A DNA stretch of 64,000 nt from Ruminococcus sp. (lineage in GTDB: Bacteria; Bacillota; Clostridia; Oscillospirales; Acutalibacteraceae), in contig JAFLSM010000003.1 in assembly GCA_022510955.1 (NCBI GenBank), positions 7,877 to 71,876 on the forward strand. The letters run 5' to 3'. Below the pieces are notes generated by a model that saw only the letters and a program-made list of their open reading frames with translations, was not told the DNA's origin and did not search any database. Of this stretch, positions 1,960-63,133 are shown piece after piece. A program made the translations under genes and the position numbers. Each line of letters starts with the position of its first letter. Positions within the stretch are counted from its first letter, which is position 1.

Positions 1960-2008
1960 AAAACCAACATGATGTTGCACCCGACTGTTTACGAGCAATT
2001 TCTTATAA
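1960..2008 (-). repeat. Short (internally deleted) copy A' of the terminator-following element
   Basis: Minus strand TTATAAGAAATTGCTCGTAAACAGTCGGGTGCAACATCATGTTGGTTTT; the first ~28 nt are identical to the adjacent full copy. Confidence 0.85.
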
Positions 2009-2011
2009 AGC

Positions 2012-2104
2012 AAAAAGCAGCCGGTGGGCTGCACCTATCCGAGTAGACAGCACCATATAAAAAAACTCTTTTGCGCCCGACTGTTTACGAGCAATTTCTT
2101 ATAA
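2012..2104 (-). repeat. Full copy A of a ~93-nt dispersed structured element (terminator-following)
   Basis: Minus strand TTATAAGAAATTGCTCGTAAACAGTCGGGCGC...ATATGGTGCTGTCTACTCGGATAGGTGCAGCCCACCGGCTGCTTTTT; homologous copies at 43159, 61055 and 63041. Confidence 0.9.
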
Positions 2105-2112
2105 AGTAAAAC

Positions 2113-2136
2113 AAAAGGGCGGATTTTTCCGCCCTT
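2113..2136 (-). terminator. Intrinsic terminator after ptsH
   Basis: AAGGGCGG-AAAAAT-CCGCCCTTTTGTTTT on the minus strand. Confidence 0.85.
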
Positions 2137-2163
2137 CCTTGTGTATAAATTTATCTGTTATGA

Positions 2164-2427
2164 TTATTCTGTAAAGCCTGACTCAACAAGAGCAACAAGA
2201 CCCTCAACAGCCTCATTCTCATCTGAACCGTCAGCAATGATTTTAATTGTTGTTCCACCGATAATACCGAGTGATAATACGCCAAGAAGGCTTTTAGCAT
2301 TAACGCTGCGCTCTTCCTTTTCAACTAATATTGTAGATTTGTATTCATTAGCTTTCTGAATAAAGAATGTTGCCGGACGAGCGTGCAAGCCTGCTTTGTT
2401 CTGAACTAATACTTCCTTAACATACAT
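2164..2427 (-). CDS. ptsH: HPr phosphocarrier protein
   Basis: GLHARPA (His15) and VNAKSLLGVLSL (Ser46) motifs; 87 aa. Confidence 0.96.
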   Translation of the reverse strand: MYVKEVLVQNKAGLHARPATFFIQKANEYKSTILVEKEERSVNAKSLLGVLSLGIIGGTTIKIIADGSDENEAVEGLVALVESGFTE

Positions 2428-2511
2428 AATTAATAACCCTCTCTACCTTAAGATTAATCATTACAGTCATAGTAAACCACTTACTATACTATACAGCTTG
2501 ACTTCATCATT

Positions 2512-2540
2512 ATTATAAACTTTTTTTCCTGCAAGGTCAA
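2512..2540 (-). promoter_or_regulatory. SigA promoter for ptsH
   Basis: TTGACC-17 bp-TATAAT on the minus strand. Confidence 0.7.
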
Positions 2541-2674
2541 TAAATTAAAACATTTTCGTTTGAATATTCACTTGGAATGAAAATTTTTATCCCTTTATTG
2601 TGCAAATTTACAAATGACAGTACTATCTGATAATTTTTTCGTCAAACAAGCCCCTATAAATTAATTACAAACGA

Positions 2675-3370
2675 CTATTCATCGGCATTTTCAAGCAATT
2701 CCGGTCGCTTCTTTTTTGTAACCTCAAGGCTCATATCTTTTCTCCATTTGTCAACATTGGCATGATGACCGCTTAAAAGAACCTCAGGCACCTCAATGCC
2801 TCTCCAATTTGACGGTTTTGTATATTGCGGATATTCCAAAAGTCCGTTAAAATGACTTTCCTCCGTAAAACATTCATTATTTGAAAGCACACCCGGAACC
2901 ATTCTGCACAAAGCATCGGCAAACACCATTGCTGGCAGTTCGCCGCCTGTCAAAACATAGTCGCCGATTGAAATTTCTTCATCCACAAATTCATCGAGCA
3001 ATCTTTGGTCAACACCCTCATAGTGTCCGCAGAGAATGCAAATATTTTCATAGTCTGCCGCAAGCTCACGGAGCTTTTCTTGCTTTAGCGTTTTGCCCTG
3101 CGGTGACATATATACAAAGTGAGGTCTTTTGCCTATTTGCTTGCAAATATCTTCAAAGCAAAGTGCAATCGGCTCTGCTTTCATAAGCATTCCCATTCCG
3201 CCACCGTACGGAGTATCATCAACCCTTCTGTGCTTGTCAAAAGCATAATCTCTCAGCTGATGACACACAATCTCAACTGCACCGCTCTTTTGTGCTCTGC
3301 CTATGATACTGTCATTGAGTACAGGCTCAAACATTTCGGGAAAAAGAGTAATAATATCAATTCTCATCAT
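2675..3370 (-). CDS. trmD: tRNA (guanine-N1)-methyltransferase
   Basis: RRVDDTPYGGGMGM, CGHYEGVDQR, SIGDYVLTGGELPA, LLEYPQYTKP motifs. Confidence 0.97.
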   Translation of the reverse strand: MMRIDIITLFPEMFEPVLNDSIIGRAQKSGAVEIVCHQLRDYAFDKHRRVDDTPYGGGMGMLMKAEPIALCFEDICKQIGKRPHFVYMSPQGKTLKQEKLRELAADYENICILCGHYEGVDQRLLDEFVDEEISIGDYVLTGGELPAMVFADALCRMVPGVLSNNECFTEESHFNGLLEYPQYTKPSNWRGIEVPEVLLSGHHANVDKWRKDMSLEVTKKKRPELLENADE

Positions 3371-3872
3371 CAAAAAGTCCTTTCATAGGATGAATAAGAA
3401 CATAACCGTCATCAACATTAGTATCAACTATAATTTCGTCAATTACGGGCATAAGGAATTTTTTACCGCTGTCATCTGTGATTTCATACACATCATTTGC
3501 ACCTGTGTAAATTACATCTGTCAGCTTTCCGTATACCGTTCCGTTATCTGCATCACGGATTTCAAGTCCGATGAGATCCTGAACAAAGTTGACGCCCTCT
3601 TCAAGCACAATGTCGTCACGGTTAATATACACAACTTTGCCCCTTAATTTTTCGGCATCCTCGATGCTTTCAACCCCTTTAATTTTTGCAAGGGTAATGT
3701 TCTTGTGAGGACGAGCCTTGATTTCAATAAAATCCTTGCCCAAGTCATCAAGATACAGCTTTTTAAAACAGCACAAAAACTCGGGAGAATCGCACCAAGG
3801 GTCAATTCTCACTTCACCCTTAATACCGTGTGTTCCGACAATTTTTCCCGTTTCAAGAAATTGCTTTTTCAT
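3357..3872 (-). CDS. rimM: Ribosome maturation factor RimM
   Basis: GKIVGTHGIKGEVRI N-terminus, TGANDVYEI PRC-barrel; overlaps trmD. Confidence 0.95.
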   Translation of the reverse strand: MKKQFLETGKIVGTHGIKGEVRIDPWCDSPEFLCCFKKLYLDDLGKDFIEIKARPHKNITLAKIKGVESIEDAEKLRGKVVYINRDDIVLEEGVNFVQDLIGLEIRDADNGTVYGKLTDVIYTGANDVYEITDDSGKKFLMPVIDEIIVDTNVDDGYVLIHPMKGLFDDEN

Positions 3873-3886
3873 ATCAAAACTTCCCT

Positions 3887-4789
3887 TTACATAATAATTT
3901 CATTGTCAAAATATTGTTCCTGAAAATGAACAGTATTATAAATTTCCTCTTTGCTGAAATTCAAATTTACATTTGTTCCAAACTGAACGGATGAGTTAAT
4001 ATTTTTGCAGGGTACAACCACCCATTTATTTTCAACATCATCATTTCGCTTGATAACTGCAACAACTCTGCCTATCATTTTTTGAATCGGCTTGTCAACA
4101 CCGAGAACATAAACATCCTGTTCCTCGCCGTCATCAGCAAAAATATTCTCTGCAAATCCGTAGTTAATAGGATAAATAATATCGCTGTGCTTTGGATGAA
4201 CCGAACCAAGCGGGCGGTCAATTTTTACGCTTACAACCGAGCCGATAATGCTGTTAATCTTCCTTTTTTCACCATCTGCAACCGAATAAATATAAGGCAT
4301 AATTCTTGCCCTTTGGCAGTCAACATAGTCGTCTTTCATTACAAAATCAAATATATCCTCAGTCTTAACCCAACAGTAATCAACTGTTTCGCCTTTTTGA
4401 AAAACAATCGTGTCTTTATTACAGTCAACTGTACAGACAAATCCGCAATGAATACTTTGCGTATCATCATAGCAAATACTGTAAATCGGTGAAAACTCAT
4501 TACAAGCAATACCTGTTTCCTCAAACAGCTCTCTGACAGCACCTTCAAGTGCAGTTTCACCTTTTTGCACAGCACCGCCTGCACTAATCTCCCAAAATCC
4601 GCCGTAGTTTTTCTTGCGAAAATCTCTTTGCATTGCAAGAAAACTACCGTCTTTATGCCTTATTACAACCTCGGCAACTAAATGATACATCCCGTCAGGA
4701 ATAAATTCTCCTCGAATTAATGTATCGTTAAGTCTTTTTCCTTTGCAATCATACGCATCCCAGACCTCTTTTGCTTGGAAACTATCCAT
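3887..4789 (-). CDS. NUDIX hydrolase fused to a C-terminal inorganic-pyrophosphatase-like domain
   Basis: Nudix box GGAVQKGETALEGAVRELFEETG; C-terminal IDRPLGSVHP..YPINYGF...DGEEQDVYVLG resembles the short clostridial PPase-like family. Confidence 0.75.
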   Translation of the reverse strand: MDSFQAKEVWDAYDCKGKRLNDTLIRGEFIPDGMYHLVAEVVIRHKDGSFLAMQRDFRKKNYGGFWEISAGGAVQKGETALEGAVRELFEETGIACNEFSPIYSICYDDTQSIHCGFVCTVDCNKDTIVFQKGETVDYCWVKTEDIFDFVMKDDYVDCQRARIMPYIYSVADGEKRKINSIIGSVVSVKIDRPLGSVHPKHSDIIYPINYGFAENIFADDGEEQDVYVLGVDKPIQKMIGRVVAVIKRNDDVENKWVVVPCKNINSSVQFGTNVNLNFSKEEIYNTVHFQEQYFDNEIIM

Positions 4790-4816
4790 AAGCTCTATTT
4801 CTCCAAATTCAAAAAA

Positions 4817-5212
4817 TCATATCGGTGCAATGGCGGGAACAAAATTTCTTACCAAGCAGTACACCGTAAAAATTCCAATCATAATATACAAAAAATAATA
4901 ATTTCTTATAGGACTGCGGTAATTTGTCTTGCCAAACGCCTTAAAAATCGGCTCGGTATATAAAATTACACCGCATACAATAGCAGTGATAATCATTGGA
5001 TTTTGACGCAATGACAGTAAAATATCACCATGTAAAAGTGCAATCACCGCCCTTGTGTTGCCGCAACCCGGACAATAAAAACCGGTAAATTTATAAAGCA
5101 TACAGTCAGGCAGCGTAACAAAGTTAATCACAAACCACGCTGTCAGAATACATCCGACAGCAATAATAAACGGAAGAACGCAAATCCAAATTTTACGCCT
5201 TGTATTATTCAT
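4817..5212 (-). CDS. DUF2752-family membrane protein
   Basis: C-x(6)-TGFYCPGCGNTRA..ALLHGD...SLRQNP motif between TM helices. Confidence 0.8.
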   Translation of the reverse strand: MNNTRRKIWICVLPFIIAVGCILTAWFVINFVTLPDCMLYKFTGFYCPGCGNTRAVIALLHGDILLSLRQNPMIITAIVCGVILYTEPIFKAFGKTNYRSPIRNYYFLYIMIGIFTVYCLVRNFVPAIAPI

Positions 5213-5276
5213 AAAATTTCCTCTGTAAAAAATATGGGCGAACCAAAGTCCGCCCGCATTTTAGTTAAGCTGATAA

Positions 5277-5651
5277 TTAATAATAGTAAGAATATGCATA
5301 AGCATCAAGTATACCTGTTGCAACTGCAATAATAATACCGATAATGCTGAGCGCAATTGCAATGATTGAAAGAACAAGACCTGCGGTTGCCATACCGTTA
5401 TTTTCTTTCTGTCTTTGCTTTGAAATCACACCGAAAATGATGCCCAAAATTGAAAAAACAAATGAACCACAGCAAACTAAAGAAAGAATACCCATAACCA
5501 AAGAAGCAATAGCAAAATTCTTACCTGATTCAGGCTGTTCCTGATACTGCTGATATTGATAAGGCTGGTTTTGATTGTATTGATCGCCCTGCTGATACTG
5601 ATAAGGTTGGTTGTTCTGGTTAAAATTGTTCTGGTTATTGAAATTATCCAT
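5277..5651 (-). CDS. DUF4190-like membrane protein with N/Q/Y-rich N-terminus
   Basis: FAIASLVMGILSL...GIIFGVIS...GMATAGLVLSII two-TM pattern. Confidence 0.75.
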   Translation of the reverse strand: MDNFNNQNNFNQNNQPYQYQQGDQYNQNQPYQYQQYQEQPESGKNFAIASLVMGILSLVCCGSFVFSILGIIFGVISKQRQKENNGMATAGLVLSIIAIALSIIGIIIAVATGILDAYAYSYYY

Positions 5652-5730
5652 ATTTGCTCCCCCTTAAAATTCTGTTGTTTTAATTATATTATAAAAAAAC
5701 AAGTTTTGTCAAGACTCGACGATAATATAA

Positions 5731-6462
5731 TTAATAATAATTATAATAATCATACGGATCGAAAAAATAGTCGCCGTTCATTAGCTTAAAAATATAGATA
5801 ATCATTGAAAGAATTGAGAACAAAATTCCCACTGATGACAAAATTATACCCGCAATCGCCATCCCCTTACCGTCTTCATCTCTTTTCAAAGAAACAATGC
5901 CGAGTACTAATCCTGTAATTGATGTAAACAGTGTTAAAAACCAAAAACAGCAAGAACCCAAAGTAGAGCAAATACCCAAAATCATAGAAGCAATGGCAAA
6001 TCCCTTTGGCTTTTCCTGAAAATTATATATAGGATATTGCTGATTATAATACGGAGCATTGTACTGCTGTGGCGGATTGTATTCTCTGTACTGATTGTTC
6101 ATATTATTCTGAACATACGGAGATTGATTATATGTACCGCCATACGGATTATTTTGATTGTACTGCTGTTGTTGGTTATAATCAAAATACGAATTATTTG
6201 ACTGCGGTATATTATTATCATAAAATCCCTGCTGATTTACATTCTGCTGTGGTTGATAATAGCTGTTAGCATTGTTCTGCTCATAAACACTTTGCTGTGG
6301 CACACTTTCCTGAATATTTTCAGCCTGCGGCTGATTATAAGGAGCATACAAATCCGCCTGATTTATTTGCGGTTCCTGCTGTGCAACATTCTGTATAACA
6401 TTTGCATTGTTGTTAAAGTCAATGTTTTGATTTTCATTAAAGTTGTTATTGAATTCGTCCAT
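5731..6462 (-). CDS. DUF4190-like membrane protein with long N/Q/Y/P-rich N-terminus
   Basis: GFAIASMILGICS...GLVLGIVSL...GMAIAGIILS; ~150-aa low-complexity N-terminal region. Confidence 0.75.
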   Translation of the reverse strand: MDEFNNNFNENQNIDFNNNANVIQNVAQQEPQINQADLYAPYNQPQAENIQESVPQQSVYEQNNANSYYQPQQNVNQQGFYDNNIPQSNNSYFDYNQQQQYNQNNPYGGTYNQSPYVQNNMNNQYREYNPPQQYNAPYYNQQYPIYNFQEKPKGFAIASMILGICSTLGSCCFWFLTLFTSITGLVLGIVSLKRDEDGKGMAIAGIILSSVGILFSILSMIIYIFKLMNGDYFFDPYDYYNYY

Positions 6463-6495
6463 ACTAACCTCCTAAATATTTGAATCGTTTAAAAA

Positions 6496-7506: not shown

Positions 7507-7553
7507 GTTAATTCTCCTATTTCTATATCAAACATAATTTGAAATAAATTTCC

Positions 7554-12200: not shown

Positions 12201-12313
12201 ACTATACATTGTACATTATACAACGAATGAAAGGTATAATCAACCATTTTATCATTTAAGTAAGCACCAACAGCCGTCAGGCGTGATTTATTAGTGGTTA
12301 TTTAAACAAAAAC

Positions 12314-12342
12314 AAACCCTAAGCAAAATTTGCTTAGGGTTT
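12314..12342 (-). terminator. Intrinsic terminator ending the aminotransferase-trpS-hypothetical run
   Basis: AAACCCTAAGCA-AATTT-TGCTTAGGGTTT followed by a U-rich tract on the minus strand. Confidence 0.85.
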
Positions 12343-12349
12343 GACTTAA

Positions 12350-17950: not shown

Positions 17951-18047
17951 CGGGTTTTAGTAAACTTCTTTTTTACTTTAACTCTTGAGGGGTAGACATT
18001 TTACATTTTACGAATCTTTTTTTATTAATAACTTTATCTATAAACTA

Positions 18048-18079
18048 AAAGCCTATGGATTATAAAATCCATAGGCTTT
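18048..18079. terminator. Bidirectional-type hairpin between convergent NUDIX and amylase genes
   Basis: AAAGCCTATGGAT-TATAAA-ATCCATAGGCTTT perfect 13-bp stem. Confidence 0.8.
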
Positions 18080-18160: not shown

Positions 18161-19786
18161 TTACTCTGCTGACTTCAAAATTACTGTTGAAATTGCAGGC
18201 AATGTAAGTGTACCGTCAGAATTAAGGACAATATGTTCATCGGTTGATGATGTCACAAGGTCTGCCCTAACCTCTGCTTTTTCAAGCATATCGCTTGTAA
18301 TTGTAAGCTCCTTGCTGTCTGTCTTATTAAAATTGTGGATAATCAGCAGTTTTGAGCCCTCATATTCAACATAATATGCGCCGATATTACTGTCATCAAA
18401 ATCAACAGTATCGGTAATTTTACCACGGGCAATCTCAGGATTTTGATTTTTCACCTTAATAATACGCTGGTAAAATTTGAGTAGTGAATCATCATTTGCC
18501 AGTTGTTGCTCAACACCGCCGTCCTCCGGAGCAGACTGTTCAATATCTCTGCCGTTAACATTGATATCCGGCAAATTATTGCTGTCCCAAATCATTCCTG
18601 TACGATAATAAGCATCACTTGTTGTGTCTGGTGCAGTCATACCAATTTCTTCGCCGTAATAGGTGAATGAATTACCAGGTACAAGCATATACACGGATGC
18701 AGCAAATTTTTCAAAGCTTGTTCCGTATGAGCTAAGTGAATTAGCCGCTCTTATTTGGTCATGGTTTGAAAGGAACATTGCATTAATGAATTTTTCATTA
18801 GCTTTTGTCATCTTTTCATCATAGCTTTTGAACTTTTTAACCGTGCTTTCACCCTTTTGTGTAAGCATATTTTGGATTATTGTACCTGACGCCTGTGCAA
18901 ACTTAAAAGAAAACAAGCTGTCAATGCCTGATTTGTAGTTTTCTTCAAGATACAAATCATCTTCCCAGTCCTCGCCTACCATATATACATCAGGCTTAAT
19001 CTCCTGACATGTTTCATAAAACCACTTTAAGAATTCAGTACCGTCAGTTGACTTGTTAGTGTAATATTTTACAGCGTCAAGTCTAAAACCGTCAACTCCT
19101 CGATCAAGCCAGAACTTAGCAATATTTGTAAACTCTTCACGAGTTTTTTCAGAATTAAGATTCCACTCCGGCATATCATGTGAGAAGTTAGCCTCACATA
19201 CATAGTCGTTTCCAAGAGCGTTCACCTGAACATCAGAAGAAAAATAATCTGACTTATGGATTTCAAAGTACTCGGCCGCACCATCAAGCTTACCCTCTGA
19301 TACTTCCTCAACAGCCTGCAAATAAAGCGGATTTCGTGATGAAATATGGTTGAGCACAAGGTCAATAATCACATTGATTCCACGCTTGTGACACTCCTCA
19401 AGCAACTTGTCAAAATCCTCAAGTGTTCCAAAATCTTCATCTATGTCGTAATAGTCGTCAACATCATACTTGTGGTATGATGTTGACGGCATAATCGGCG
19501 TAAGCCAAATTCCGTCTATACCAAGGTCATCACCCGAATTCGGGTCACCGTCATTTAGATAATCAAGTTTTGAAATAATACCGGGAATGTCACCGATTGT
19601 GTCGCCGTCGGAATCGCAGAAAGAATTGACAAAAATCTGATAGTAATTGCGATATTTGTCACTTGACTGCACAGCTTCAATTCCTTCGATAGGGTCATCC
19701 TTCGGCGATTTTTTTGAGCCGCATCCTGCAAGCACACAGCTTGAGGCAATCAAAAGTGATAATAAAATAGAAATTGTTTTTTTCAT
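18161..19786 (-). CDS. GH13 alpha-amylase-family lipoprotein
   Basis: Lipobox VLAGC; GH13 regions DLVLNH, GFRLDAVKY, VGEDW, FLSNHD, YYGEEIGM. Confidence 0.92.
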   Translation of the reverse strand: MKKTISILLSLLIASSCVLAGCGSKKSPKDDPIEGIEAVQSSDKYRNYYQIFVNSFCDSDGDTIGDIPGIISKLDYLNDGDPNSGDDLGIDGIWLTPIMPSTSYHKYDVDDYYDIDEDFGTLEDFDKLLEECHKRGINVIIDLVLNHISSRNPLYLQAVEEVSEGKLDGAAEYFEIHKSDYFSSDVQVNALGNDYVCEANFSHDMPEWNLNSEKTREEFTNIAKFWLDRGVDGFRLDAVKYYTNKSTDGTEFLKWFYETCQEIKPDVYMVGEDWEDDLYLEENYKSGIDSLFSFKFAQASGTIIQNMLTQKGESTVKKFKSYDEKMTKANEKFINAMFLSNHDQIRAANSLSSYGTSFEKFAASVYMLVPGNSFTYYGEEIGMTAPDTTSDAYYRTGMIWDSNNLPDINVNGRDIEQSAPEDGGVEQQLANDDSLLKFYQRIIKVKNQNPEIARGKITDTVDFDDSNIGAYYVEYEGSKLLIIHNFNKTDSKELTITSDMLEKAEVRADLVTSSTDEHIVLNSDGTLTLPAISTVILKSAE

Positions 19787-26883: not shown

Positions 26884-26999
26884 GTTGGTGTTGATGACGC
26901 TGAGGGTCCACCTGTTCCCATACCGAACACAGAAGTTAAGCTCAGTGGTGCCGAAAATACTTGGCTGGAGACGGCCTGGAAAAATAGGGAGATGCCAAC
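26884..26999 (+). rRNA. rrf: 5S ribosomal RNA (stand-alone copy)
   Basis: 116 nt; terminal helix GTTGGTG/TGCCAAC; conserved CCACCTGTTCCCATACCGAACACAGAAGTTAAGCTC. Confidence 0.95.
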
Positions 27000-27008
27000 A
27001 CTCAAAGT

Positions 27009-27036
27009 GTCCACCCAGCAGGGTGGGCGTTTTTTT
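27009..27036 (+). terminator. Intrinsic terminator after 5S
   Basis: GTCCACCC-AGCA-GGGTGGGC then GTTTTTTT. Confidence 0.88.
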
Positions 27037-27072
27037 ATGCCTAAAAAATTTCAGCTTACGCATAATAGTTAT

Positions 27073-27230
27073 TTATGATGTTTACCCATCAACAGAAGTA
27101 AATCTTTGGGGTGACAGTGGTAACTTTATTACTCACTAATAAAACACTTATAAATAATTAAAAATTTTAAATAGTGAATTATGATGTTTACCATTAATCG
27201 GAAGTTTATCTTCGGGTTACAACGGTCACA
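27073..27230 (+). ncRNA. Tandem pair of a ~52-nt structured motif (candidate cis-regulatory RNA) upstream of fkbM
   Basis: Two copies (27073-27124, 27179-27230): TTATGATGTTTACC..GAAG-N5-CTTY-GGG..ACA..GGTMAC with compensatory stem changes. Confidence 0.45.
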
Positions 27231-27278
27231 TATTAAGAAAAACTTATGAAGCGTAGATAAAAAATCGGAGTAAAAAAC

Positions 27279-28346
27279 ATGACAAATATAATCTCAATTT
27301 TAAAAAATGAACAGAGTGTGTGGAAAAATCTTCAAAACAGCGAAAAACCGATTGTCCTCTACGGAATGGGCGACGGCGCTGACAAGGTACTTTCTGCATT
27401 TGAAAAATATAATATAAAAGTTAGCGGAGTAATGGCAAGCGACGACTTTGTTCGTGGTCAAAGTTTTCACGGCTTCACCGTAAAAAAAGAAAGTGTACTG
27501 GAGCAGGAGCTTGGTGACTTTACGGTTGCACTCTGCTTTGCAAGCCAGCTCTCAGAAGTTATGGACTATATCAAGTCAGTTGCAAACCGTCACAGCACTT
27601 TAGTTCCGTCTGTGCCTGTATTCGGCAATGTGTTGTTCGATGATGACTTTATCAAGCAGAATAAATCCGATATTGAAAATGCGTACAATCTGCTTGCAGA
27701 TGATTTGTCACGCAAGGTATATGAAAATGTACTGCTTTTCTATTATACAGGCAAAATTGAACTGCTCGATGAAATTACAACCGACAAGGACGAAGCTTTC
27801 AATAACATTCTAAAGTTGGGCAGCAACGAAACATATGTTGACCTCGGTGCATATAACGGAGATACGATTAACGAGTTTTTGTATTATGCAGGCAGTAATT
27901 ACCGCAAAATTATAGCCTTTGAGCCAAATGAAAAGAATTTCAGGAAATTGAGGGCTAACTGTATTGATATGCAAAACATTGATTTGTGGCAGCTTGGTGC
28001 ATATAACAAAAACACAATTCTGGAATTCAACAACAAGGCAGGAAGAAACAGTGCAATTTGCAGTAATGGCACAAAAACTCAAGTTGCCGCTGTTGACACA
28101 ATTTTATGCGGAATTGCCGCAAGCTATATAAAAGCCGATGTCGAGGGCGCTGATTTTGAAACGCTTGAGGGTATGAAAAATACGCTGAAAAATTTTAAAC
28201 CAAAGCTAAACTTTTCAGCGTATCATAGATTTGAAGATATTTTCAGACTTGCTCTGTATATTAACAAGCTTAATCCAAGCTATAAAATTTATCTGCGTCA
28301 TCATCCCTACATTCCTGCGTGGGACACAAATTTATACTGTGTTTAA
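27279..28346 (+). CDS. FkbM-family SAM-dependent methyltransferase
   Basis: YVDLGAYNGDT, IAFEPN, YIKADVEGAD, FSAYHRFED, YLRHH. Confidence 0.9.
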   Translation: MTNIISILKNEQSVWKNLQNSEKPIVLYGMGDGADKVLSAFEKYNIKVSGVMASDDFVRGQSFHGFTVKKESVLEQELGDFTVALCFASQLSEVMDYIKSVANRHSTLVPSVPVFGNVLFDDDFIKQNKSDIENAYNLLADDLSRKVYENVLLFYYTGKIELLDEITTDKDEAFNNILKLGSNETYVDLGAYNGDTINEFLYYAGSNYRKIIAFEPNEKNFRKLRANCIDMQNIDLWQLGAYNKNTILEFNNKAGRNSAICSNGTKTQVAAVDTILCGIAASYIKADVEGADFETLEGMKNTLKNFKPKLNFSAYHRFEDIFRLALYINKLNPSYKIYLRHHPYIPAWDTNLYCV

Positions 28347-37805: not shown

Positions 37806-37940
37806 ACCAAGACAAAAGAGTGGTTATAACATTTATGAAAGGAAAGATGCACTTTTTATTTAACCACCTACTAAACACCGTTACAAAAGCTTTCCGCAAA
37901 ACTTAAACGGAGTTTAATATATAGTGCATTGGTAGCAAAT

Positions 37941-39407
37941 ATGAACAGAACACATATTGTTGGCTCGGTAATAGCAATTATATTATCGCTTGCTCTGATG
38001 TTTTCTGCTGTGTCAACAGGCGCCTCCGCTGCGGGAAACACAGTTACGCTTACTTTTAATGCAACTGTAGCAAACAGTATTCCGCAAGGAACTAAGGTTT
38101 CAATCGGTTCAAGCCTTAACACATGGAATCCTAAGGATACCAAATGGTATGCAACTCAGCTTGACGAGACGCATTTCAGCCTTGTCGTATCGGTAGGCAG
38201 TGAATACATTGGACAAGAAATAGAGTACAAATGGACTCTTCAGTATCCCGACAATGAGGGAAACGGTTGGGAGTATTGTGAGAGTGCAGCCGGCACGGGA
38301 CCCTTCGGAAACAGAAAATATATTGTAAAAGATGCAGATAATGTGTTAAACGATACTGTGTCTTTCCCGAATAAGCCGGAAGAAACTAAGAGTACCTTAA
38401 CCTGCGGAAAGCTTGAAACAATCGAAATGAAAATGCCGCAGTTCTCTGACGGCCGCAAGCGTACAATCCGTGTTTGGCTGCCCGACGGATATGATGCTGA
38501 AGACAGCGAAAAGAAATATTCTGTTTTGTATATGCATGACGGGCAGAATCTTTTTGATGCAGCCACATCATTTTTAGGCGAATGGGAAGTTGACGAATCT
38601 CTTACAAAGCTGATGAACAAGGGTTATGAGTCCACGATAGTAGTCGGTATTGACAACGGAGAGTTGGAGCGTTTTAATGAGCTTTCTCCAAGTTGGGAAC
38701 TAAACGCATTAGGCAAAGAATACATTTCTGCTCCTGCCGGCGAAAAATATGCAGATTTTATTGTAAACACCGTAAAGCCCTACATAGACGAGCATTACAA
38801 CACAAAGCCTCAGCGTGAGTACACAGGCATCGGAGGAAGCTCGATGGGCGGAATTATGTCTCTGTATATGGCTATGGAATACGCCGATGTTTTTGACTAT
38901 GGCATTATTTTCTCACCGGCTATGCATATTTACAATGAAGATGTCTTAGACAAATTCTTTGATAATTATAATTTTACCGCTATGAGATATCTGCCGAAGC
39001 TCTATCTGTTTGCAGGAGCAAAAACAGGAGGCTCGGAACCGGGCTCACCCTATGATGAAGCCTGCATTACAAAATATGTCGACATTATCAAAAATGATCT
39101 TACAGACAGAAATTATCCCGAGCAAATAATCGGCACACTTACAGATAAAAACGAGTATCACATCGAAAGCACTTGGGCAAAATTTTTTCCGACTGCTCTG
39201 CAATGGTTGAGCAATGCCCGAGAAATCCCGGGTGATGTGAACGGCGACGGTGTTTTGAATGTTGACGACGCAACGGCAATCCAAAAATACATATGCGCGA
39301 TTGATGTGTTGCCTTTAGAAAAACAGAGGTTAGCAGATTTTAACGGTGATTCATTTATTAACATCGAAGATGTAACTGCAATTCAGAGAAAAATTGCAGG
39401 ATTGTAA
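37941..39407 (+). CDS. Secreted alpha/beta-hydrolase (esterase) with N-terminal CBM20-like module and C-terminal dockerin
   Basis: Signal peptide ending ASA; IGSSLNTWNP...IEYKWT module; YMHDGQNLFD and GGSSMGG nucleophile; dockerin GDVNGDGVLNVDDATAIQK...ADFNGDSFINIEDVTAIQRKI. Confidence 0.85.
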   Translation: MNRTHIVGSVIAIILSLALMFSAVSTGASAAGNTVTLTFNATVANSIPQGTKVSIGSSLNTWNPKDTKWYATQLDETHFSLVVSVGSEYIGQEIEYKWTLQYPDNEGNGWEYCESAAGTGPFGNRKYIVKDADNVLNDTVSFPNKPEETKSTLTCGKLETIEMKMPQFSDGRKRTIRVWLPDGYDAEDSEKKYSVLYMHDGQNLFDAATSFLGEWEVDESLTKLMNKGYESTIVVGIDNGELERFNELSPSWELNALGKEYISAPAGEKYADFIVNTVKPYIDEHYNTKPQREYTGIGGSSMGGIMSLYMAMEYADVFDYGIIFSPAMHIYNEDVLDKFFDNYNFTAMRYLPKLYLFAGAKTGGSEPGSPYDEACITKYVDIIKNDLTDRNYPEQIIGTLTDKNEYHIESTWAKFFPTALQWLSNAREIPGDVNGDGVLNVDDATAIQKYICAIDVLPLEKQRLADFNGDSFINIEDVTAIQRKIAGL

Positions 39408-41232: not shown

Positions 41233-41266
41233 AGGCGTATCGTTTCTGCGGTACGCCTTTGTTTTT
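41233..41266 (+). terminator. Intrinsic terminator
   Basis: AGGCGTATCG-TTTCTG-CGGTACGCCT plus TTGTTTTT. Confidence 0.75.
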
Positions 41267-43127: not shown

Positions 43128-43152
43128 AAGAGGTGTCGCTGACACCTCTTTT
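43128..43152 (+). terminator. Intrinsic terminator after the Na/Pi cotransporter gene
   Basis: AAGAGGTGTC-GCT-GACACCTCTT-TT. Confidence 0.85.
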
Positions 43153-43158
43153 CTTGCT

Positions 43159-43251
43159 TTATAGGAAATTGCTCGGAAACAGTCAGGTACAAAAGAGTGT
43201 TTTCATATGACGCTGTCTGCTCTGATAGGTGCAGCCACCGGTTGCCTTTTT
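43159..43251 (+). repeat. Full copy B of the terminator-following element
   Basis: TTATAGGAAATTGCTCGGAAACAGTC...ATATGACGCTGTCTGCTCTGATAGGTGCAGCCACCGGTTGCCTTTTT. Confidence 0.88.
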
Positions 43252-43268: not shown

Positions 43269-43329
43269 AATACTAATCGCCAAAAGAAGAGTAGAAAAGA
43301 TAGTTAATATTCTATTGAAGATTAGTATA
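43269..43329. mobile_element. TA-ended MITE-like element, ~60-bp copy c
   Basis: AATACTAATCGCCAAAAGAAGAGTA...ATATTCTATTGAAGATTAGTATA. Confidence 0.7.
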
Positions 43330-49710: not shown

Positions 49711-49742
49711 GAAGGAGTGACCTGATACGGTCACTTCTTTTT
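49711..49742 (+). terminator. Intrinsic terminator after pduL
   Basis: GGAGTGACC-TGATAC-GGTCACTTC-TTTTT. Confidence 0.85.
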
Positions 49743-49745
49743 ACT

Positions 49746-49792
49746 TTATAGGAAACTGCTCTTTTTAGTACTGACTTGCAACAATAAGTTTG
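49746..49792 (+). repeat. Degenerate short copy E of the terminator-following element
   Basis: TTATAGGAAACTGCTC...TGCAACAATAAGTT; same layout as short copy A'. Confidence 0.5.
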
Positions 49793-51110: not shown

Positions 51111-51142
51111 AACAGGAGCGAACAGGTTATCGCTCCTGTTTT
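51111..51142. terminator. Bidirectional terminator
   Basis: AACAGGAGCGA-N8-TCGCTCCTGTT-TT. Confidence 0.8.
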
Positions 51143-51149
51143 ATTTACT

Positions 51150-51174
51150 TATACTAATCTTCAATAGAATAGTA
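51150..51174. repeat. Solo terminal repeat of the MITE family (copy f)
   Basis: TATACTAATCTTCAATAGAATAGTA; reverse complement nearly identical to the right end of copy c. Confidence 0.65.
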
Positions 51175-53359: not shown

Positions 53360-53382
53360 TTTGATTACTCCCATTAAAACAC

Positions 53383-54063: not shown

Positions 54064-54125
54064 TAAATTTATTAAAATTTTACATAAGCTACTCTTCGAG
54101 ATACTAAGTTTACATTTTTCAAATG

Positions 54126-54264: not shown

Positions 54265-54409
54265 AAGTATATTAAACAATATGTATATGAAAATTGTGTG
54301 AATTTATTATGAATTTGCGTTGAAAAATACACTAAATCATTACATTCACAAAAATACAATGTATGTATTCCTTACAAAACAATACATAATGTTTGATAAG
54401 CTTTTTTTG

Positions 54410-57079: not shown

Positions 57080-57166
57080 TTGTATATCTCCTCATATTAA
57101 AAATATTATTTATACTAATAATCTCTAAAAATCTTCAAGGCTTGAACATTTCATAATATTGCCCTT

Positions 57167-57958: not shown

Positions 57959-57972
57959 ATTTAACCTCAAAA

Positions 57973-58983
57973 TTACTCATTTGTTGCCTTGGCAAATTCT
58001 TCGACCTTTGCAAGTGCCTTGCCGCTGTCTATAATCTCCTGAGCAAGCTTAACGCCGTCTGCAATGCTGTCTGCCTTGCCGCCTGCAACGAGACCTAATG
58101 CCGAGTTAAGCACAACAATGTCACGCTTTGCTCCTGTGATTTCACCGCTTAAAATCTTTCTTGTGATTTCGGCATTTTCTGCACCGTCACCACCCAAAAG
58201 CTCGGACATATCATAAGTACCCAGGCCGAACTCCTCAGGTGTGATGTCATAGTTTTTAAAACTGCCGTTGTCAATCTCGCAAACCTTTGTTTTACCTGTT
58301 ACCGTTACCTCATCCATACCGTCACTGCCGTGGAACACAAAGCCACGCTTAACACCGAGATTTGAGAAAACCTTTGCAACAGGTTCAACAAGACTTTCGG
58401 AATACACGCCTGTAACCTGTAAATTTGCACTTGCAGGATTTGTAAGAGGGCCTAAAAGATTGAATACATTGCGTATTCCTATTTCTTTTCTTACAGGGCC
58501 TACATACTTCATTGCAGAATGATAGTTCTGTGCGTGCATAAAGCAAATGCCTGTTTTACTGAGCACCTCAGCATTTTTCTCGGGAGTAATCATAATGTTT
58601 ATGCCGAGAGCCTCAAGGCAGTCAGACGCACCGCTCTTGCTTGACATTGAACGGTTGCCGTGCTTTGCAACAGGCACACCTCCTGCTGAAATAACAAAAG
58701 CTGATGTGGTTGAAATATTGAATGTGCCTGTGCCGTCACCGCCTGTGCCGACAATATCAAGGGCATCTGTGCTCTTTGAAACATGCAGAGCTTTGTCACG
58801 CATAACAGTTGCGCAGGCTGTAATTTCATCAATCGTTTCGCCTTTTAGTCTGAGTACTGTAAGATAAGCAGCCATTTGTGCCTGTGTGGCTGTACCGCTC
58901 ATCATTTCTTCCATAACCTGTGTTGCCTCTTCAAATGTAAGGTCATTTCCTGCAACAACCTTGATAATTGCCTCTTTTATCAA
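57973..58983 (-). CDS. trpD: Anthranilate phosphoribosyltransferase
   Basis: DIVGTGGDG..TFNIST, AKHGNRSMSSKSG, FNLLGPLTNP. Confidence 0.97.
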   Translation of the reverse strand: MIKEAIIKVVAGNDLTFEEATQVMEEMMSGTATQAQMAAYLTVLRLKGETIDEITACATVMRDKALHVSKSTDALDIVGTGGDGTGTFNISTTSAFVISAGGVPVAKHGNRSMSSKSGASDCLEALGINIMITPEKNAEVLSKTGICFMHAQNYHSAMKYVGPVRKEIGIRNVFNLLGPLTNPASANLQVTGVYSESLVEPVAKVFSNLGVKRGFVFHGSDGMDEVTVTGKTKVCEIDNGSFKNYDITPEEFGLGTYDMSELLGGDGAENAEITRKILSGEITGAKRDIVVLNSALGLVAGGKADSIADGVKLAQEIIDSGKALAKVEEFAKATNE

Positions 58984-58988
58984 TTAAA

Positions 58989-59558
58989 TCAAACCCTTTC
59001 AATAAAGTTTCTAATCATCTGCATTCCGTGTGAGGTAAGGATTGATTCAGGGTGAAACTGCAATCCGTAAATTTCATAATCCCTATGTTTAACGCCCATA
59101 ACCTCTCCCATATTATCTTCAGCAACAACAATAAGTTCCTGCGGAATTGTGTCACGCTTTGCAATAAGTGAGTGGTATCTTGCGCCCTCAACAACCTTTG
59201 GCATATCGGCAAAAATTTTACATTCTGTATCAACTTTAATATCGCTTTTCTTGCCGTGCATTAACTTTACTGCATGTGTGATTTGTGCACCAAACACCTC
59301 GCAAATTGCCTGATGACCGAGGCACACACCCAAAATAGGATATTCGCCCTTAAGCTCTCTTATAACATCCTCGCACACACCTGCATTCTTCGGATAACCG
59401 GGACCCGGGGAAAGTATTATGTGACTGGGATTTAAATTTCTGATTTCATCAACGGTAATTTCATCATTTCTAACAACCAAAATATCGGGAGTTACACTGC
59501 CCACAAACTGAACAAGATTGTAGGTAAAGCTGTCGTAATTGTCAATAAAAAGTATCAT
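58989..59558 (-). CDS. trpG: Anthranilate synthase component II (glutamine amidotransferase)
   Basis: IDNYDSFTYNL, SPGPG, GVCLGHQ, ARYHSL, QFHPESI. Confidence 0.96.
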   Translation of the reverse strand: MILFIDNYDSFTYNLVQFVGSVTPDILVVRNDEITVDEIRNLNPSHIILSPGPGYPKNAGVCEDVIRELKGEYPILGVCLGHQAICEVFGAQITHAVKLMHGKKSDIKVDTECKIFADMPKVVEGARYHSLIAKRDTIPQELIVVAEDNMGEVMGVKHRDYEIYGLQFHPESILTSHGMQMIRNFIERV

Positions 59559-61015
59559 AACTTGTCAACCTCCCCTGCATTTTTAACTGCGTTCATAACT
59601 GCAAGAGCCTTGTTGTAGGTTTCCATATATTCGCTTTCAGGAACGCTGTCTGCTACAATACCTGCGCCTGCCTGAACATACACCTTTCCGCCTGTTTTAA
59701 CAGCCATACGGATTGCAATACAGGTGCAAAGATTGCCGTTGAAGTCAGCATATCCGAGTGCACCACCGTATACACCGCGGGGAGTTTTTTCAAGCTCTTC
59801 AATAATTTCACACGCTCTTATCTTTGGCGCACCCGACAATGTGCCTGCCGGCAAGACTGCCTCTACTGCACTTAAAGCGTCAAGGTCGTCTCTGATTTCG
59901 CCCTCAACCTCACTGCAAATGTGCATAATTTTTGAAAAGCGCAAAACTTTTTGATATTCAGTTACCTTTACTGAACCGAACTTAGCAATTCTGCCGATAT
60001 CGTTTCTTCCGAGGTCAACAAGCATATTATGCTCTGCAAGCTCTTTTTCATCCTGCATAAGCTCTTTGGCAAGTGCGTCGTCCTCTTCCTTTGTCTTTCC
60101 TCTCGGACGGGAGCCTGCAATAGGAAATGTGTTAAGAACGCCGTCCTGAAGCTTTACAAGAGTTTCGGGTGAGGTACTGATAATCTCATCGCCTTCAATA
60201 TTCATATACACCATATATGGAGAAGGATTTGTCACACGCAAAACTCTGTATGCGTTTATCAGCGAACCTTTATAGTCAGCCTCAAAACGCCTTGAAACAA
60301 CGCATTGGAAGATATCGCCGTCAAAAATATATTCCTTGGTTTTTTCAACCATATCGCAAAATTCTTCTTTGGTGTAGGTACTTGAAAATTCAACATTTTC
60401 ATCGCTCTCAAGCTTTGGCAGAGGAGAGGCATCAGTGATTATGGAAATAATTTCGTTTATATCCGACTTTGCTTTTTCGTACTGACGCTCTACATCATAA
60501 GTTTTCATATTAGCAACGACAATCAGTTTTTGCTTTAAATGGTCATAAGCAATCACCTTGTCAAACATCATTAAATCAAAATCGTTTGTTTCTCCCCTTT
60601 TGAGTTTTAGAACAGGCTCTGCAACTGCAATCATCGCATAGCCATAGTAACCCATAAGTCCGCCTGTAAACGGAGGAAGGTCATCAAAATGCGGAGTTTT
60701 ATAATCGGCAAGATATTCTCGCAAGGCATCATAAGGCTTGTCGGTTTTTACAATTCTTGCGCCCTCGCCCGTAACGGTGAGCGTACCGTCTTTATATGCA
60801 AGGCGTGATTTAGGATTAAAGCCGAGATATGAGTATCTTCCCCACTTTTCACCACCCTCAATGCTTTCAAGCAGGAAAAATTTGTCTGATTTTTGAGCAA
60901 TTTTTCTGAGTAATGTAATTGGAGTAACAACATCGGCATAAATCTCTTTGCAAACAGGGATTACGCTGTATTTGTCCTTCAAACTCAGAATCTCATCAAA
61001 TGACGGTTTAATCAT
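59555..61015 (-). CDS. trpE: Anthranilate synthase component I
   Basis: LLESIEGGEKWGRYS, NPSPYM, AEHNMLVDLGRND, LPAGTLSGAPK, QAGAGIVADS. Confidence 0.97.
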   Translation of the reverse strand: MIKPSFDEILSLKDKYSVIPVCKEIYADVVTPITLLRKIAQKSDKFFLLESIEGGEKWGRYSYLGFNPKSRLAYKDGTLTVTGEGARIVKTDKPYDALREYLADYKTPHFDDLPPFTGGLMGYYGYAMIAVAEPVLKLKRGETNDFDLMMFDKVIAYDHLKQKLIVVANMKTYDVERQYEKAKSDINEIISIITDASPLPKLESDENVEFSSTYTKEEFCDMVEKTKEYIFDGDIFQCVVSRRFEADYKGSLINAYRVLRVTNPSPYMVYMNIEGDEIISTSPETLVKLQDGVLNTFPIAGSRPRGKTKEEDDALAKELMQDEKELAEHNMLVDLGRNDIGRIAKFGSVKVTEYQKVLRFSKIMHICSEVEGEIRDDLDALSAVEAVLPAGTLSGAPKIRACEIIEELEKTPRGVYGGALGYADFNGNLCTCIAIRMAVKTGGKVYVQAGAGIVADSVPESEYMETYNKALAVMNAVKNAGEVDKL

Positions 61016-61054
61016 TTTACACCAACCTTTCAAATTATTTTATATTTATACAAC

Positions 61055-61147
61055 AAAAAAGCAGTCGGTGGTCTGCACCTATCGAACAGGCAACACCATA
61101 TAAAAATGCCCTTTTGTGTACGACTGTTTATGAGCGGTTACCTATAA
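61055..61147 (-). repeat. Full copy C of the terminator-following element, between the T-box terminator and trpE
   Basis: Minus strand TTATAGGTAACCGCTCATAAACAGTCG...ATATGGTGTTGCCTGTTCGATAGGTGCAGACCACCGACTGCTTTTTT. Confidence 0.85.
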
Positions 61148-61150
61148 ATC

Positions 61151-61465
61151 AAAAAAAGCTTTTGTCCCAAAAAAGGGACAAAAGCCTGAATAAACAACTT
61201 CTGCGGTACCACCCAATTTGACGAATAATCGCCCGCTTAACAGCATACTGACATATGCCTCTCACTGTAACGGTTGAGCTCCGTCGAAAACTACTCGTAA
61301 AACATTTTTAACACACATCGCCTGTTACTGCAATCCTTATGAACTAAAAACTTTATACTTTCGGTTCGCCCTCACAAGTCCATTCACACAATCCTACACT
61401 ATCGGCTCACACCAACCGCCGACTCTCTGAAAGTTTCAGAAAATGCTACTACTCTTGTTCATAGG
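61151..61465 (-). promoter_or_regulatory. Tryptophan T-box riboswitch
   Basis: AG box AGAGAG, GGTGTGA, specifier GAA-TGG (Trp codon at 61380-61382), T-box AATTGGGTGGTACCGC (61203-61218), terminator GCTTTTGTCCC/GGGACAAAAGC + U7. Confidence 0.95.
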
Positions 61466-61496
61466 TTTAACATATTAATATTATTATATTAATATT

Positions 61497-61525
61497 ATTA
61501 TATTACTCTACTATTCATTTGTCAA
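61497..61525 (-). promoter_or_regulatory. Consensus SigA promoter of the trp leader
   Basis: TTGACA-17 bp-TATAAT on the minus strand. Confidence 0.88.
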
Positions 61526-61614
61526 CACTTTTTAGATCGTAATTACTTGAAATAATATCTATCTTTTATTTATCAAATAAGAACGACAGACTACTGCAAA
61601 CACATCATTAGAAT

Positions 61615-62037
61615 TTAAAGTTTAACAAACTGTTTTTCATCAAAATTAGTTTCCATTGTCCATTCGGTTGCGACACCATTTTTCAAACAAAATATCTGAA
61701 GCAGATTATCTATTCCATTATCTTTCCATGCCTGCAAAAACTTTCTTGTGGGATGACTAAATATTTCTTCACGAAGATTTTCATCATTCTCAATATATTG
61801 TAGCTTACCGGTAACACGAATCTGAGTTCCTTGCCCCTGAAAACATAACTCAACCTTTGGATTTTTCATAATCTGTTCAAAAACATCTTTAGTTGAAGCT
61901 GTGTGAAAAATTATTCCGTTTTCATCAGCTCTAAACAGGAGCATTCCTCTGACACGTGGCTGATCTCCATCCATAGTTGCCAAATGAAAAACAGGATTCT
62001 CTTTCATCAAATTAAAAATTTCACTTTTAGTTAGCAT
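61615..62037 (-). CDS. Pyridoxamine 5'-phosphate oxidase-like FMN-binding protein
   Basis: FHLATMDGDQPRVRGM, FHTASTKDVFEQIMKNPKVELCF, IRVTG. Confidence 0.85.
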   Translation of the reverse strand: MLTKSEIFNLMKENPVFHLATMDGDQPRVRGMLLFRADENGIIFHTASTKDVFEQIMKNPKVELCFQGQGTQIRVTGKLQYIENDENLREEIFSHPTRKFLQAWKDNGIDNLLQIFCLKNGVATEWTMETNFDEKQFVKL

Positions 62038-62138
62038 ACATTATTCCTCCTTTTGTTTACGGCTATTATAGTTGAAAACAATAAATATTACTTTCAAAAT
62101 AATGCCGTATGCTTGCAAAAAACAAGCAAAAGCAGAAA

Positions 62139-63008
62139 TTACTCCTTATATGCGTCACGGTATTCTGATGGAGATATATTAACAAGGCGTTTAAAGCACG
62201 AGGTAAAATGTGCATTACTGCCAAAACCACATCTTTGTGATATCTCTGTAATAGGCACATCTTTTCTTTTTAACAGGATTTTTGACTTTGCTATTCTTGT
62301 TTGAATTAAATATTCTATCGGAGTGAATGAAGTTTCTTTTTTAAAAAGTCTGTTAAGGCTTGATTCCGACATATATGCTATCTGTGCCAACTTTTTCACC
62401 GTGATATTTTCATCAAAATGCTGTTCTATATATTGCTGTACTCTACCTACTGTATAATTTGATGAAACAGAACGCATATCCAGATTTTCTCCAAGAATGC
62501 TTCTGATAATCCAGTGAGTAATAAGCGTTGTCTGTGCCCCTAAAGTTATATCCGAATTCTTCATACCCTTACTGTATTCTAAAGCAAATGTATTTAGAGT
62601 TTTTAAAATATCACTGCATAATGAAAATTGATGTTGCTCAAAACAAGGTACATTTTCACTGTAAAGACGATACTGTTTTTCAAAATATTCCCTATCAATC
62701 ATAGTACAATAATAATGATTAAAATCTTCATCTATATCATTATGAGGAATATCAGGTGATGTAATTGTCGCAAAATAATGCTTGGGCTTTAATTCTATTT
62801 TTCGCTCAACTAAAAGTTCTTCATTTGAAAATACTATGATTATCATATAAGAAGGATGTGTATGACTTTTTCTTGCGGCGTATCCACATTGCCCGAAACT
62901 CGGAATAAACAATCCCAGATTGTCATTAACATAGCAATCTACATATTGAAGTTCATCTTCTTTAAGACTATCTCCGACAAGCGACCTTATTTTATTAAAA
63001 TCCTTCAT
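62139..63008 (-). CDS. AraC-family transcriptional regulator
   Basis: N-terminal cupin-like HTHPSY; C-terminal LAQIAYMSESSLNRLFKK...ISQRCGFGSNAHFTSCFKR...SPSEYR. Confidence 0.93.
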   Translation of the reverse strand: MKDFNKIRSLVGDSLKEDELQYVDCYVNDNLGLFIPSFGQCGYAARKSHTHPSYMIIIVFSNEELLVERKIELKPKHYFATITSPDIPHNDIDEDFNHYYCTMIDREYFEKQYRLYSENVPCFEQHQFSLCSDILKTLNTFALEYSKGMKNSDITLGAQTTLITHWIIRSILGENLDMRSVSSNYTVGRVQQYIEQHFDENITVKKLAQIAYMSESSLNRLFKKETSFTPIEYLIQTRIAKSKILLKRKDVPITEISQRCGFGSNAHFTSCFKRLVNISPSEYRDAYKE

Positions 63009-63040
63009 AATATTAACTTCCTATCAAAACATATTTATAT

Positions 63041-63133
63041 AAAAAACATCCTGTAGGTTGCACCTATCCGAGTAGACAGCACCATATAAAAATAACCTTA
63101 TGTGCCCGACTGTTTCCGAGCAATTTCCTATCA
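63041..63133 (-). repeat. Full copy D of the terminator-following element, upstream of the AraC gene
   Basis: Minus strand GATAGGAAATTGCTCGGAAACAGTCGGGCAC...ATATGGTGCTGTCTACTCGGATAGGTGCAACCTACAGGATGTTTTTT. Confidence 0.9.

Follow-up and report, generated by a model that had tools for sequence, protein, structure and literature searches.

A probable family of ~96-nt non-coding mobile elements at intrinsic terminators of gut Ruminococcus

In a 64,000-nt stretch of DNA from Ruminococcus sp. (assembly GCA_022510955.1, contig JAFLSM010000003.1, positions 7,877 to 71,876 of the forward strand; hereafter the window), a unit of about 96 nt recurs in full or in part. We consider it probable, at roughly 0.78, that this unit represents a family of mobile elements, both non-coding and non-autonomous, which occur in gut Ruminococcus and related Ruminococcaceae and land at intrinsic terminators. 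The constant partner of the element is the upstream terminator. An earlier account of the window, the sequence-only reading, had proposed either a new cis-regulatory RNA class or a non-autonomous mobile element that targets terminators. The second proposal was well supported by empty alleles at three window sites and in a cross-species pair, by tandem copies with a period of 96-97 nt, and by the association of the copies with a hairpin plus a T-run. The analysis covered the 64-kb window together with loci of ~2.8-14 kb from other genomes (given L numbers below).

Terminators in front of the element

Nearly every copy is preceded by a hairpin specific to its locus, then by 5-7 T's and then by (A/G)CTTT-ATAGG. 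For each copy the 40 nt ending 8 nt before ATAGG were folded, and a hairpin was counted at -8 kcal/mol or better. The median upstream folding energy was -15.7 kcal/mol, and 42 of 52 copies (81%) passed this cut-off. The corresponding share was 13% for control T-runs in general (n = 1,500; p 3.6e-23) and 15.5% for intergenic ones (n = 567; odds ratio 23, p 2.5e-22). Since one of these upstream hairpins terminates a T-box leader recognised by Rfam, the hairpins are taken as host terminators and not as parts of the repeat. All copies have one and the same orientation relative to the hairpin and the T-run.

The surrounding genes showed a less regular arrangement. The upstream gene was co-oriented with the copy in 37 of 43 cases and the downstream gene in 28 of 49, while 21 of 49 copies (43%) were situated between convergent genes, some of them a few bases away from the stop codon of the neighbour. 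Where the next gene was co-oriented, it began 10-751 nt from the copy. The neighbours were functionally unrelated and included uvrC, a methyltransferase gene, trpE, the gene of an AraC regulator, aspS, valS and 5S rRNA, among others. The co-orientation with a downstream gene described in the sequence-only reading is correct for the four full copies of the window but is not a property of the family. GC skew tracked gene orientation and was therefore uninformative on the orientation of the copies with respect to replication.

Direct reading of the sites gave six copies in the window, four full ones and two with the 5' part only, at the places where the sequence-only reading had put them. A 26-nt probe from the 5' core matched the window four times and a 29-nt probe from the 3' half three times, with no match of either in 100 shuffles; nhmmer and a covariance model recovered the same six copies and no further ones. 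We took the unit to begin with (A)CTTTATAGG and to close with the last T of the 3' T-run. A terminator hairpin with a T-run stands directly in front of five of the six copies (the terminators of ptsH, of the Na/Pi cotransporter gene, of pduL and of the T-box leader, and the previous copy), as had been claimed, the exception being the copy at 63041. The names earlier given to the flanking genes were also correct (HPr/uvrC, Na-Pi cotransporter/RNA methyltransferase, T-box/trpE, AraC-family, pduL). One of the short copies, formerly placed at 49746-49792, proved to be related to the element at 49743-49761, but beyond 49761 no relation is recognisable. The copies and their putative targets are as follows.

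2113..2138 (-): host intrinsic terminator of ptsH, putative insertion target; hairpin GGGCGGA-AAAA-TCCGCCC plus T's; empty alleles exist
2012..2107 (-): full copy that follows the ptsH terminator, 96-nt unit (ACTTTATAAG...); 3' hairpin GCAGCC-CACC-GGCTGC at 2017-2032, terminator-like by the scan, T5 at 2012-2016
1948..2011 (-): 3'-truncated copy in tandem with the full copy at 2012, 96 nt apart; found by nhmmer and by reading
43128..43156 (+): host terminator of the Na/Pi cotransporter gene; GAGGTGTC-GCT-GACACCTC plus TTTTCTTG
43157..43251 (+): full copy that follows the terminator of the Na/Pi cotransporter gene; 3' hairpin in 43231-43245; absent from the related strain of run X2
49743..49761 (+): 5'-only fragment ACTTTATAGGAAACTGCTC between convergent genes; adjoins the pduL terminator at 49711-49742
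61151..61187 (-): terminator and T-run of the T-box leader, putative insertion target; the leader is 61171-61471, an Rfam match
61055..61150 (-): full copy, 96 nt, the most diverged, in the interval between the T-box terminator and trpE; weakened 3' hairpin GCAGAC-CACC-GACTGC
63041..63135 (-): full copy, with the AraC-family gene downstream; the sole window copy that lacks a preceding terminator hairpin; 3' hairpin degenerate
27009..27036 (+): unoccupied putative target, the 5S rRNA terminator; GTCCACCCAGCAGGGTGGGCG plus T7; the orthologue in L011 is filled directly after its T7

About four of the roughly 12-14 strong terminator-like sites of the window are occupied; unoccupied terminators include those at 27009-27036, 12313-12343 and 41233-41258. 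The sequences after two unoccupied terminators (18034-18049, minus strand, and 51141-51155, plus strand) resemble the first ~13 nt of the element (TTTAGTTTATAGATAA and TTTATTTACTTATAC); this likeness may be due to chance in AT-rich DNA, to a preferred target motif or to a very short stub.

Beyond the window, nhmmer found 52 non-redundant copies with the 5' core in metagenome-assembled genomes (MAGs) of Ruminococcus and Ruminococcaceae and in metagenomes. A degenerate 5'-core pattern had 20 true matches in such MAGs, at non-homologous sites in at least eight species, and matched ten more metagenome contigs; the same pattern gave two chance matches and matched one contig binned as Methanobrevibacter. 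The latter (CAYPJH010000041.1, 3 kb, locus L020) bears a perfect copy of the element, and its assignment is most likely a binning error, the contig truly coming from a Ruminococcus. No match was found in viral contigs (IMG/VR), plasmids or phages. Sequence of the window was present mostly in runs from pig and other gut metagenomes, and contig depths summed over the element reached, for one sample, ~20 times the flank depth.

The family falls into two main subtypes, which have in common the 5' core ATAGGAAAYTGCTCGRAAACAGTCGGGCA and the motif CTGTCTGCYCG and differ in the middle and in the 3' hairpin. In Rfam no copy had a match at the gathering threshold, matches at E up to 10 were at chance level only, and the second subtype had none; this agrees with the novelty claimed in the sequence-only reading. 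In the searchable literature, we found no description of the family, the nearest analogue being the SPRITE repeat discussed below.

Empty alleles, tandem arrays and junctions

Related strains differ by the presence of the element. Contigs encoding an identical HPr protein have ptsH-uvrC spacers of different lengths. The empty allele, seen in strains with 97-100% identical flanks, reads hairpin-TTTTTT-CTTCAT, while the filled allele reads hairpin-TTTATTTTTACTTTATAGG...CACCGGCTGC-TTTT-CTTCAT, with a 104-nt segment in place of TTTTTT and a net gain of 98 nt. In the T-box-trpE interval, a contig of a close strain (run X2) joins position 61061 to 61158 and skips exactly 96 nt, the element. Between the genes of the Na/Pi cotransporter and the methyltransferase, the X2 strain matches the window to ...CACCTCTTTTCTTG (43156) and resumes at 43305, again without the element. 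The cross-species pair is at the 5S rRNA terminator, whose hairpin GTCCACCCAG(C/T)AGGGTGGGCG plus T7 has no copy behind it in the window and is followed by ACCTTATAGG... in another species (L011). Further empty sites were sought by exact-protein look-ups, three of which returned nothing or only the strain of the window itself.

Head-to-tail copies have periods of 96, 96, 97 and 96 nt, matching the size of the insertion-deletion difference. Such arrays are explained if the terminator-like end of the element is itself a target. In locus L012 (6310-6700, plus strand), a tandem array contains an extra segment of ~75 nt in its middle (period 169 nt), and a 5'-only copy comes next. In another species, copies are likewise present in the orthologous T-box-trpE leader and belong to the other subtype; either the site was hit twice or its copies were replaced. 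That leader (L002:560-920, plus strand) has an internally deleted copy with an intact hairpin and T6, then a 5'-only copy, then, before trpE, further GC-rich inverted repeats (GGGAACGGTCTTGACCGTTCC).

At both the 5S site and 43157 the host T-tract is intact on the left side, which speaks for a unit '(A)CTTTATAGG ... hairpin plus T-run' that entered immediately behind the T-tract. The ptsH allele pair fits insertion inside the T-run and does not fit a simple duplication. In some loci an unusual T-tract recurs on either side of the copy (TTTATTTA in L021, TTGTTTA in L004, TTTTTAA in L009 and L040), which would mean that the T-tract was duplicated on insertion. Across the copies this signal is marginal, with the junction base agreeing in 19 of 29 (p 0.02). 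Terminal inverted repeats were not found: the best end-to-end complementarity was 6.1 of 16, compared to 6.4 in shuffles.

Once inserted, copies probably lose sequence through deletions between short direct repeats and end up as 5' stubs. For example, the deletion in L002 lies between its two TGCTCG motifs and that in L042 (at 9479) between CGG repeats, and in L026 everything between two T-runs is lost. Remnants may be reused. The ribosome-binding site of uvrC, GAGGTG (1951-1956, with the uvrC ATG at 1944), is supplied by the remnant ATGAGGTGCTG, which comes from the middle of the truncated copy. The uvrC leader of L026 (1790-1830) is likewise derived from a copy and keeps GAGGTG although what else there was of the copies is deleted. 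In the empty-site strains, uvrC uses a different, native ribosome-binding site (GGAGAAAAAATG). Of the window copies, the one in the trpE leader has diverged most and has a weakened hairpin, as would be expected if an efficient terminator were harmful there.

Several observations concern the surroundings of the empty 5S site and other genes of the window. The 5S rRNA gene (26884-27000, plus strand; Rfam, 84 bits) is an orphan with its own strong terminator and no 23S rRNA gene upstream; it is preceded by a gene of an SDR/FabG-like reductase, and the arrangement in L011, from another species, is the same. Two direct repeats of ~55 nt (~27060-27120 and 27175-27235, plus strand; TTATGATGTTTACC..GAAGT..ATCTT.GGG..ACA..GGT.AC) occupy part of the interval from the 5S terminator to the gene of an FkbM-type methyltransferase (27279-28346). 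These repeats had no match in Rfam at E up to 1 and may represent a leader motif in tandem. The window also encodes an esterase with a dockerin type I domain (37929-39407, plus strand) and an alpha-amylase with a SusG-like C-terminal domain (18161-19786, minus strand), both consistent with a cellulosome- or amylosome-forming Ruminococcus.

Architecture of the unit

The unit has three parts: a conserved 5' core (A)CTTT-ATAGGAAAYTGCTCGRAAACAGTCGGGCA, a variable middle closed by CTGTCTGCYCG, and a GC-rich 3' hairpin followed by T's. The 5' core is nearly invariant across species. The 3' hairpin is conserved in shape and not in sequence, and is the sole helix with real compensatory variation. Its variants are GCAGCC/GGCTGC, GCAGGC/GCCTGC and GCAACC/GGTTGC in one subtype and GTCGAG/CTCGAC and GCCGAG/CTCGGC in the other, with GCGGCG/CGCCGC and GCGGTG/CACCGC as further unrelated stems. 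A simple scan classed the 3' hairpin with its T's as terminator-like in two of the full window copies, those best preserved, but not in the other two, which are degenerate.

The internal stems described in the sequence-only reading fared less well. The G-U pairs and the exchange of GCAC/GUGC for ACAC/GUGU are literally present in the window copies, but across the family no specific covariation was seen. With 30-43 copies, the GCAC/GUGC stem was paired in 76-78%, and sliding one partner by three columns raised this figure to 87%; the internal stems as a whole, including CUGUCU/GGAUAG, were paired in 76-80%, with slid controls as good. The proposed antiterminator UUGC/GCAR cannot form in the second subtype, where the hairpin arm is GTCGAG.

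The internal CGGGCA may pair either with an upstream UGCUCG or with a downstream UGCYCG; the two pairings are mutually exclusive and each is compatible with ~92% of the copies. Neither of them, the extension of the downstream one included, exceeded shuffled controls. RNAalifold retained one 5-bp stem on the copies, with zero compensatory changes, and folding of single sequences on both strands gave unremarkable stabilities (z-scores from -0.1 to -1.8). By eye, the 5' core showed no convincing -35/-10 promoter pair on either strand, and a small open reading frame (ORF) considered in the element lacks its ATG in the second subtype.

A second repeat family, without the 5' core, keeps GTCGGGCA...CTGTCTGCYCG, which mildly favours the long-range CGGGCA/UGCYCG pairing. 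This family is found in tandem with a period of ~109 nt (L023:1522-1740 and L004:2438-2506, both plus strand). It has GTCGGGCA...CCTGTCTGCTCGAATTG and a 3' hairpin in common with the element, another 5' part (TCTTGACTGTTCCGCAGAATTACGGCAAACACATTG) and no T-run. Having parts in common, the two kinds of repeats appear to be built from exchangeable modules.

Possible mechanism, alternatives and known systems

The element would be inserted at the T-tract behind the host hairpin, in such a way that the host hairpin and the element hairpin each keep a T-run. With a T-run behind both hairpins, the host retains its upstream terminator and gains a second terminator-like site. Insertion immediately beyond a transcription unit would be safe, disturbing neither neighbour even when a convergent gene ends a few bases away. 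Much less certainly, the element may be moved in trans by an enzyme encoded elsewhere. If we had to guess, it would be an HUH/Y1-type transposase that acts on single-strand DNA and reads structure, or else a rolling-circle-like enzyme, either of which would treat 'hairpin plus T-run' both as the end of the element and as its target. Such an enzyme would fit the pairs (G-T/G-U) possible on one strand only, the lack of inverted repeats, the ambiguous duplication, the target-like 3' hairpin, and the constant 5' and variable 3' ends. In a stronger form of this idea, which we regard as rather unlikely, the mechanism would read terminators as such, be it a transposase with end mimicry, to which any 'hairpin plus T-run' would pass for the 3' end of the element, or retro-insertion of a terminated transcript primed on the T/A-tract, a bacterial short interspersed element (SINE).

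A number of observations weigh against a mobile element with these properties. Both junctions are within T-runs, and the ends of the element can thus be placed only to within a few bases. A duplication comprising the T-tract and about one further base gave a weak signal over 29-30 copies (likeness of left and right sides, p 0.04 versus mismatched pairs). Every truncated copy keeps its 5' end, unlike what simple random decay would leave. The empty alleles could be precise deletions between the flanking T-runs and not ancestral sites, and the high conservation of the 5' core across species could reflect a function at the host level. Moreover, the searches for a mobilising enzyme were negative. 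Among 30 window ORFs scanned against Pfam there was no transposase, reverse transcriptase or integrase; these were housekeeping or carbohydrate-utilisation genes or had no Pfam match. None of these enzymes was found beside 5'-only copies either, and these copies are not the ends of longer coding elements. No recurrent mobile-element enzyme appeared among the 25 commonest families listed for 121 flanking ORFs, no Y1 (HUH) transposase gene was seen in the window or the loci from other genomes, and no ORF lies inside the unit. With no enzyme found, movement is something that we infer and have not seen.

The alternatives have to account for the same placement, alleles and structure. A new cis-regulatory RNA, that is, a riboswitch or attenuator in the leader of the downstream gene with a 5' stem set against its own 3' terminator, would explain why all four full copies of the window point the same way as the gene that follows, why CGGGCA has two well-compatible alternative partners, and why one copy is inside a real leader, between the T-box and trpE. 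On the other hand, the downstream gene is convergent in 43% of cases, co-oriented genes begin at widely scattered distances and have unrelated functions, and at 43157 the best promoter match of the next gene is downstream of the element. In front of the copies there is no conserved promoter, only the host terminator, and neither covariation of internal helices beyond shuffles nor folding z-scores lend support. The placement, the presence or absence between near-identical strains, the tandem arrays and the 5' stubs largely refute the regulatory role, which we now hold to be highly improbable. A host-beneficial terminator cassette or structured small RNA, kept for termination, insulation or 3'-end stability and spreading only secondarily, would be in line with the compensatory changes in the 3' hairpin and the T's behind it, with the position of copies at gene ends (often convergent and a few bases from a stop codon) and with the almost invariant 5' core; similar roles were proposed for REP and SPRITE repeats (PMC3049150). 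Still, the host terminators are already strong, with the median given above, and extra termination would be mostly redundant; close strains do well without copies. Efficient termination would do harm in the trpE and uvrC leaders, where the copies are degenerate or truncated, and the spread to new sites is left unexplained. We find this explanation very improbable.

Another route would go through RNA: a terminated transcript of the element would be reverse-transcribed at a nick in the A-run opposite the terminator T-tract, with duplication of the T-tract, in a SINE-like manner. The unit does resemble a terminated transcript, its two junctions are in T-runs, terminal inverted repeats are lacking, and the first few bases at the 5' junction vary. 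There are weak signs of T-tract duplication of variable length, with TTTATTTA/TTTATTTA in L021 as a clear example, and six element-bearing contigs occur in a library labelled RNA-Seq (run X1; the label is uncertain, and DNA may be present). However, target-primed reverse transcription yields 5'-truncated copies, while here all truncated copies have lost the 3' part; also, there is no conserved upstream promoter, and no reverse transcriptase was found among the scanned window ORFs or the recurrent families of flanking ORFs. This route appears quite improbable, and we continue with insertion of a non-autonomous element at terminators as the preferred reading.

Small interspersed repeats are common in bacteria, and for most of them it is not known how and where they insert. 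For the present element the insertion site appears directly readable: a terminator T-tract, entered in a single orientation, the host retaining its terminator and acquiring another. That a 96-nt element chooses terminators implies that some enzyme recognises terminator structure. There are consequences for the annotation of gut Firmicutes as well, since the copies resemble leader RNAs or small-RNA genes and could be mis-called riboswitches. The copies create doubled terminators, can sit inside real leaders such as that from the T-box to trpE, and leave fragments that can be reused, as in the ribosome-binding site of uvrC.

To our knowledge, group IIC introns have been the only elements known to use the terminator T-tract as an insertion target. 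They insert in a fixed orientation just downstream of terminator stem-loops, recognising structure over sequence, and the element has the same target in the same fixed orientation (42 of 52 copies). Group IIC introns are six-domain ribozymes at least several hundred nt long and usually encode a reverse transcriptase, whereas the element is 96 nt long, has no GUGYG start and no group II match in Rfam, and no reverse transcriptase was found nearby. A terminator-reading mechanism, if true, would be a second, independent solution to terminator targeting.

The PATEs derived from IS200/IS605 and the REP/REPIN repeats, both associated with Y1/HUH enzymes, resemble the element in the absence of inverted repeats and of a clear duplication, in hairpins near the ends that form on one strand, in insertion beside a short target motif in a fixed orientation and in movement in trans, which for the element is presumed. 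Unlike the element, they have similar hairpins at both ends, a specific target of 4-5 nt and a Y1 gene in the genome; the 5' hairpin of the element, UGCUCG/CGGGCA, is unrelated to its 3' hairpin, and its target is a hairpin plus a T-run. The rolling-circle elements IS91 and Helitron also have a constant 5' end, a 3'-proximal hairpin (in the element a possible stop signal), no inverted repeats, no clear duplication, and 3' ends differing by subfamily. They are kilobase-sized, with a Rep/helicase gene and specific terminal tetranucleotides, none of which was found here, and the likeness is by analogy only. Bacterial miniature inverted-repeat transposable elements (RUP, BOX, Correia, MITEAba12) are comparable in size class, copy number, intergenic location and presence or absence between strains. 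Their terminal inverted repeats match those of insertion sequences and their target duplications have a fixed length, while the element is without inverted repeats and its duplication is at best weakly supported.

The closest analogue by description is SPRITE of Streptococcus pneumoniae, an AT-rich repeat of ~100 bp (~28% GC) with an 18-bp duplex and a long U-rich tract, found near gene 3' ends and strongly enriched between convergent genes; it has no IS-like ends and no known transposase partner, and no empty site was available for it (PMC3049150). The element and SPRITE are alike in size, in a Firmicute host, in a terminator-like stem with a T/U tract, in the lack of inverted repeats and in placement at 3' ends and between convergent genes. 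The element differs in its shorter hairpin (6 bp), which is rich in GC, in the conserved 5' core that precedes this hairpin, and in its hosts, which belong to a different phylogenetic group. In contrast to SPRITE, the empty sites of the element show insertion at the T-tract of pre-existing terminators, and the element offers a concrete model for the unexplained pneumococcal repeats.

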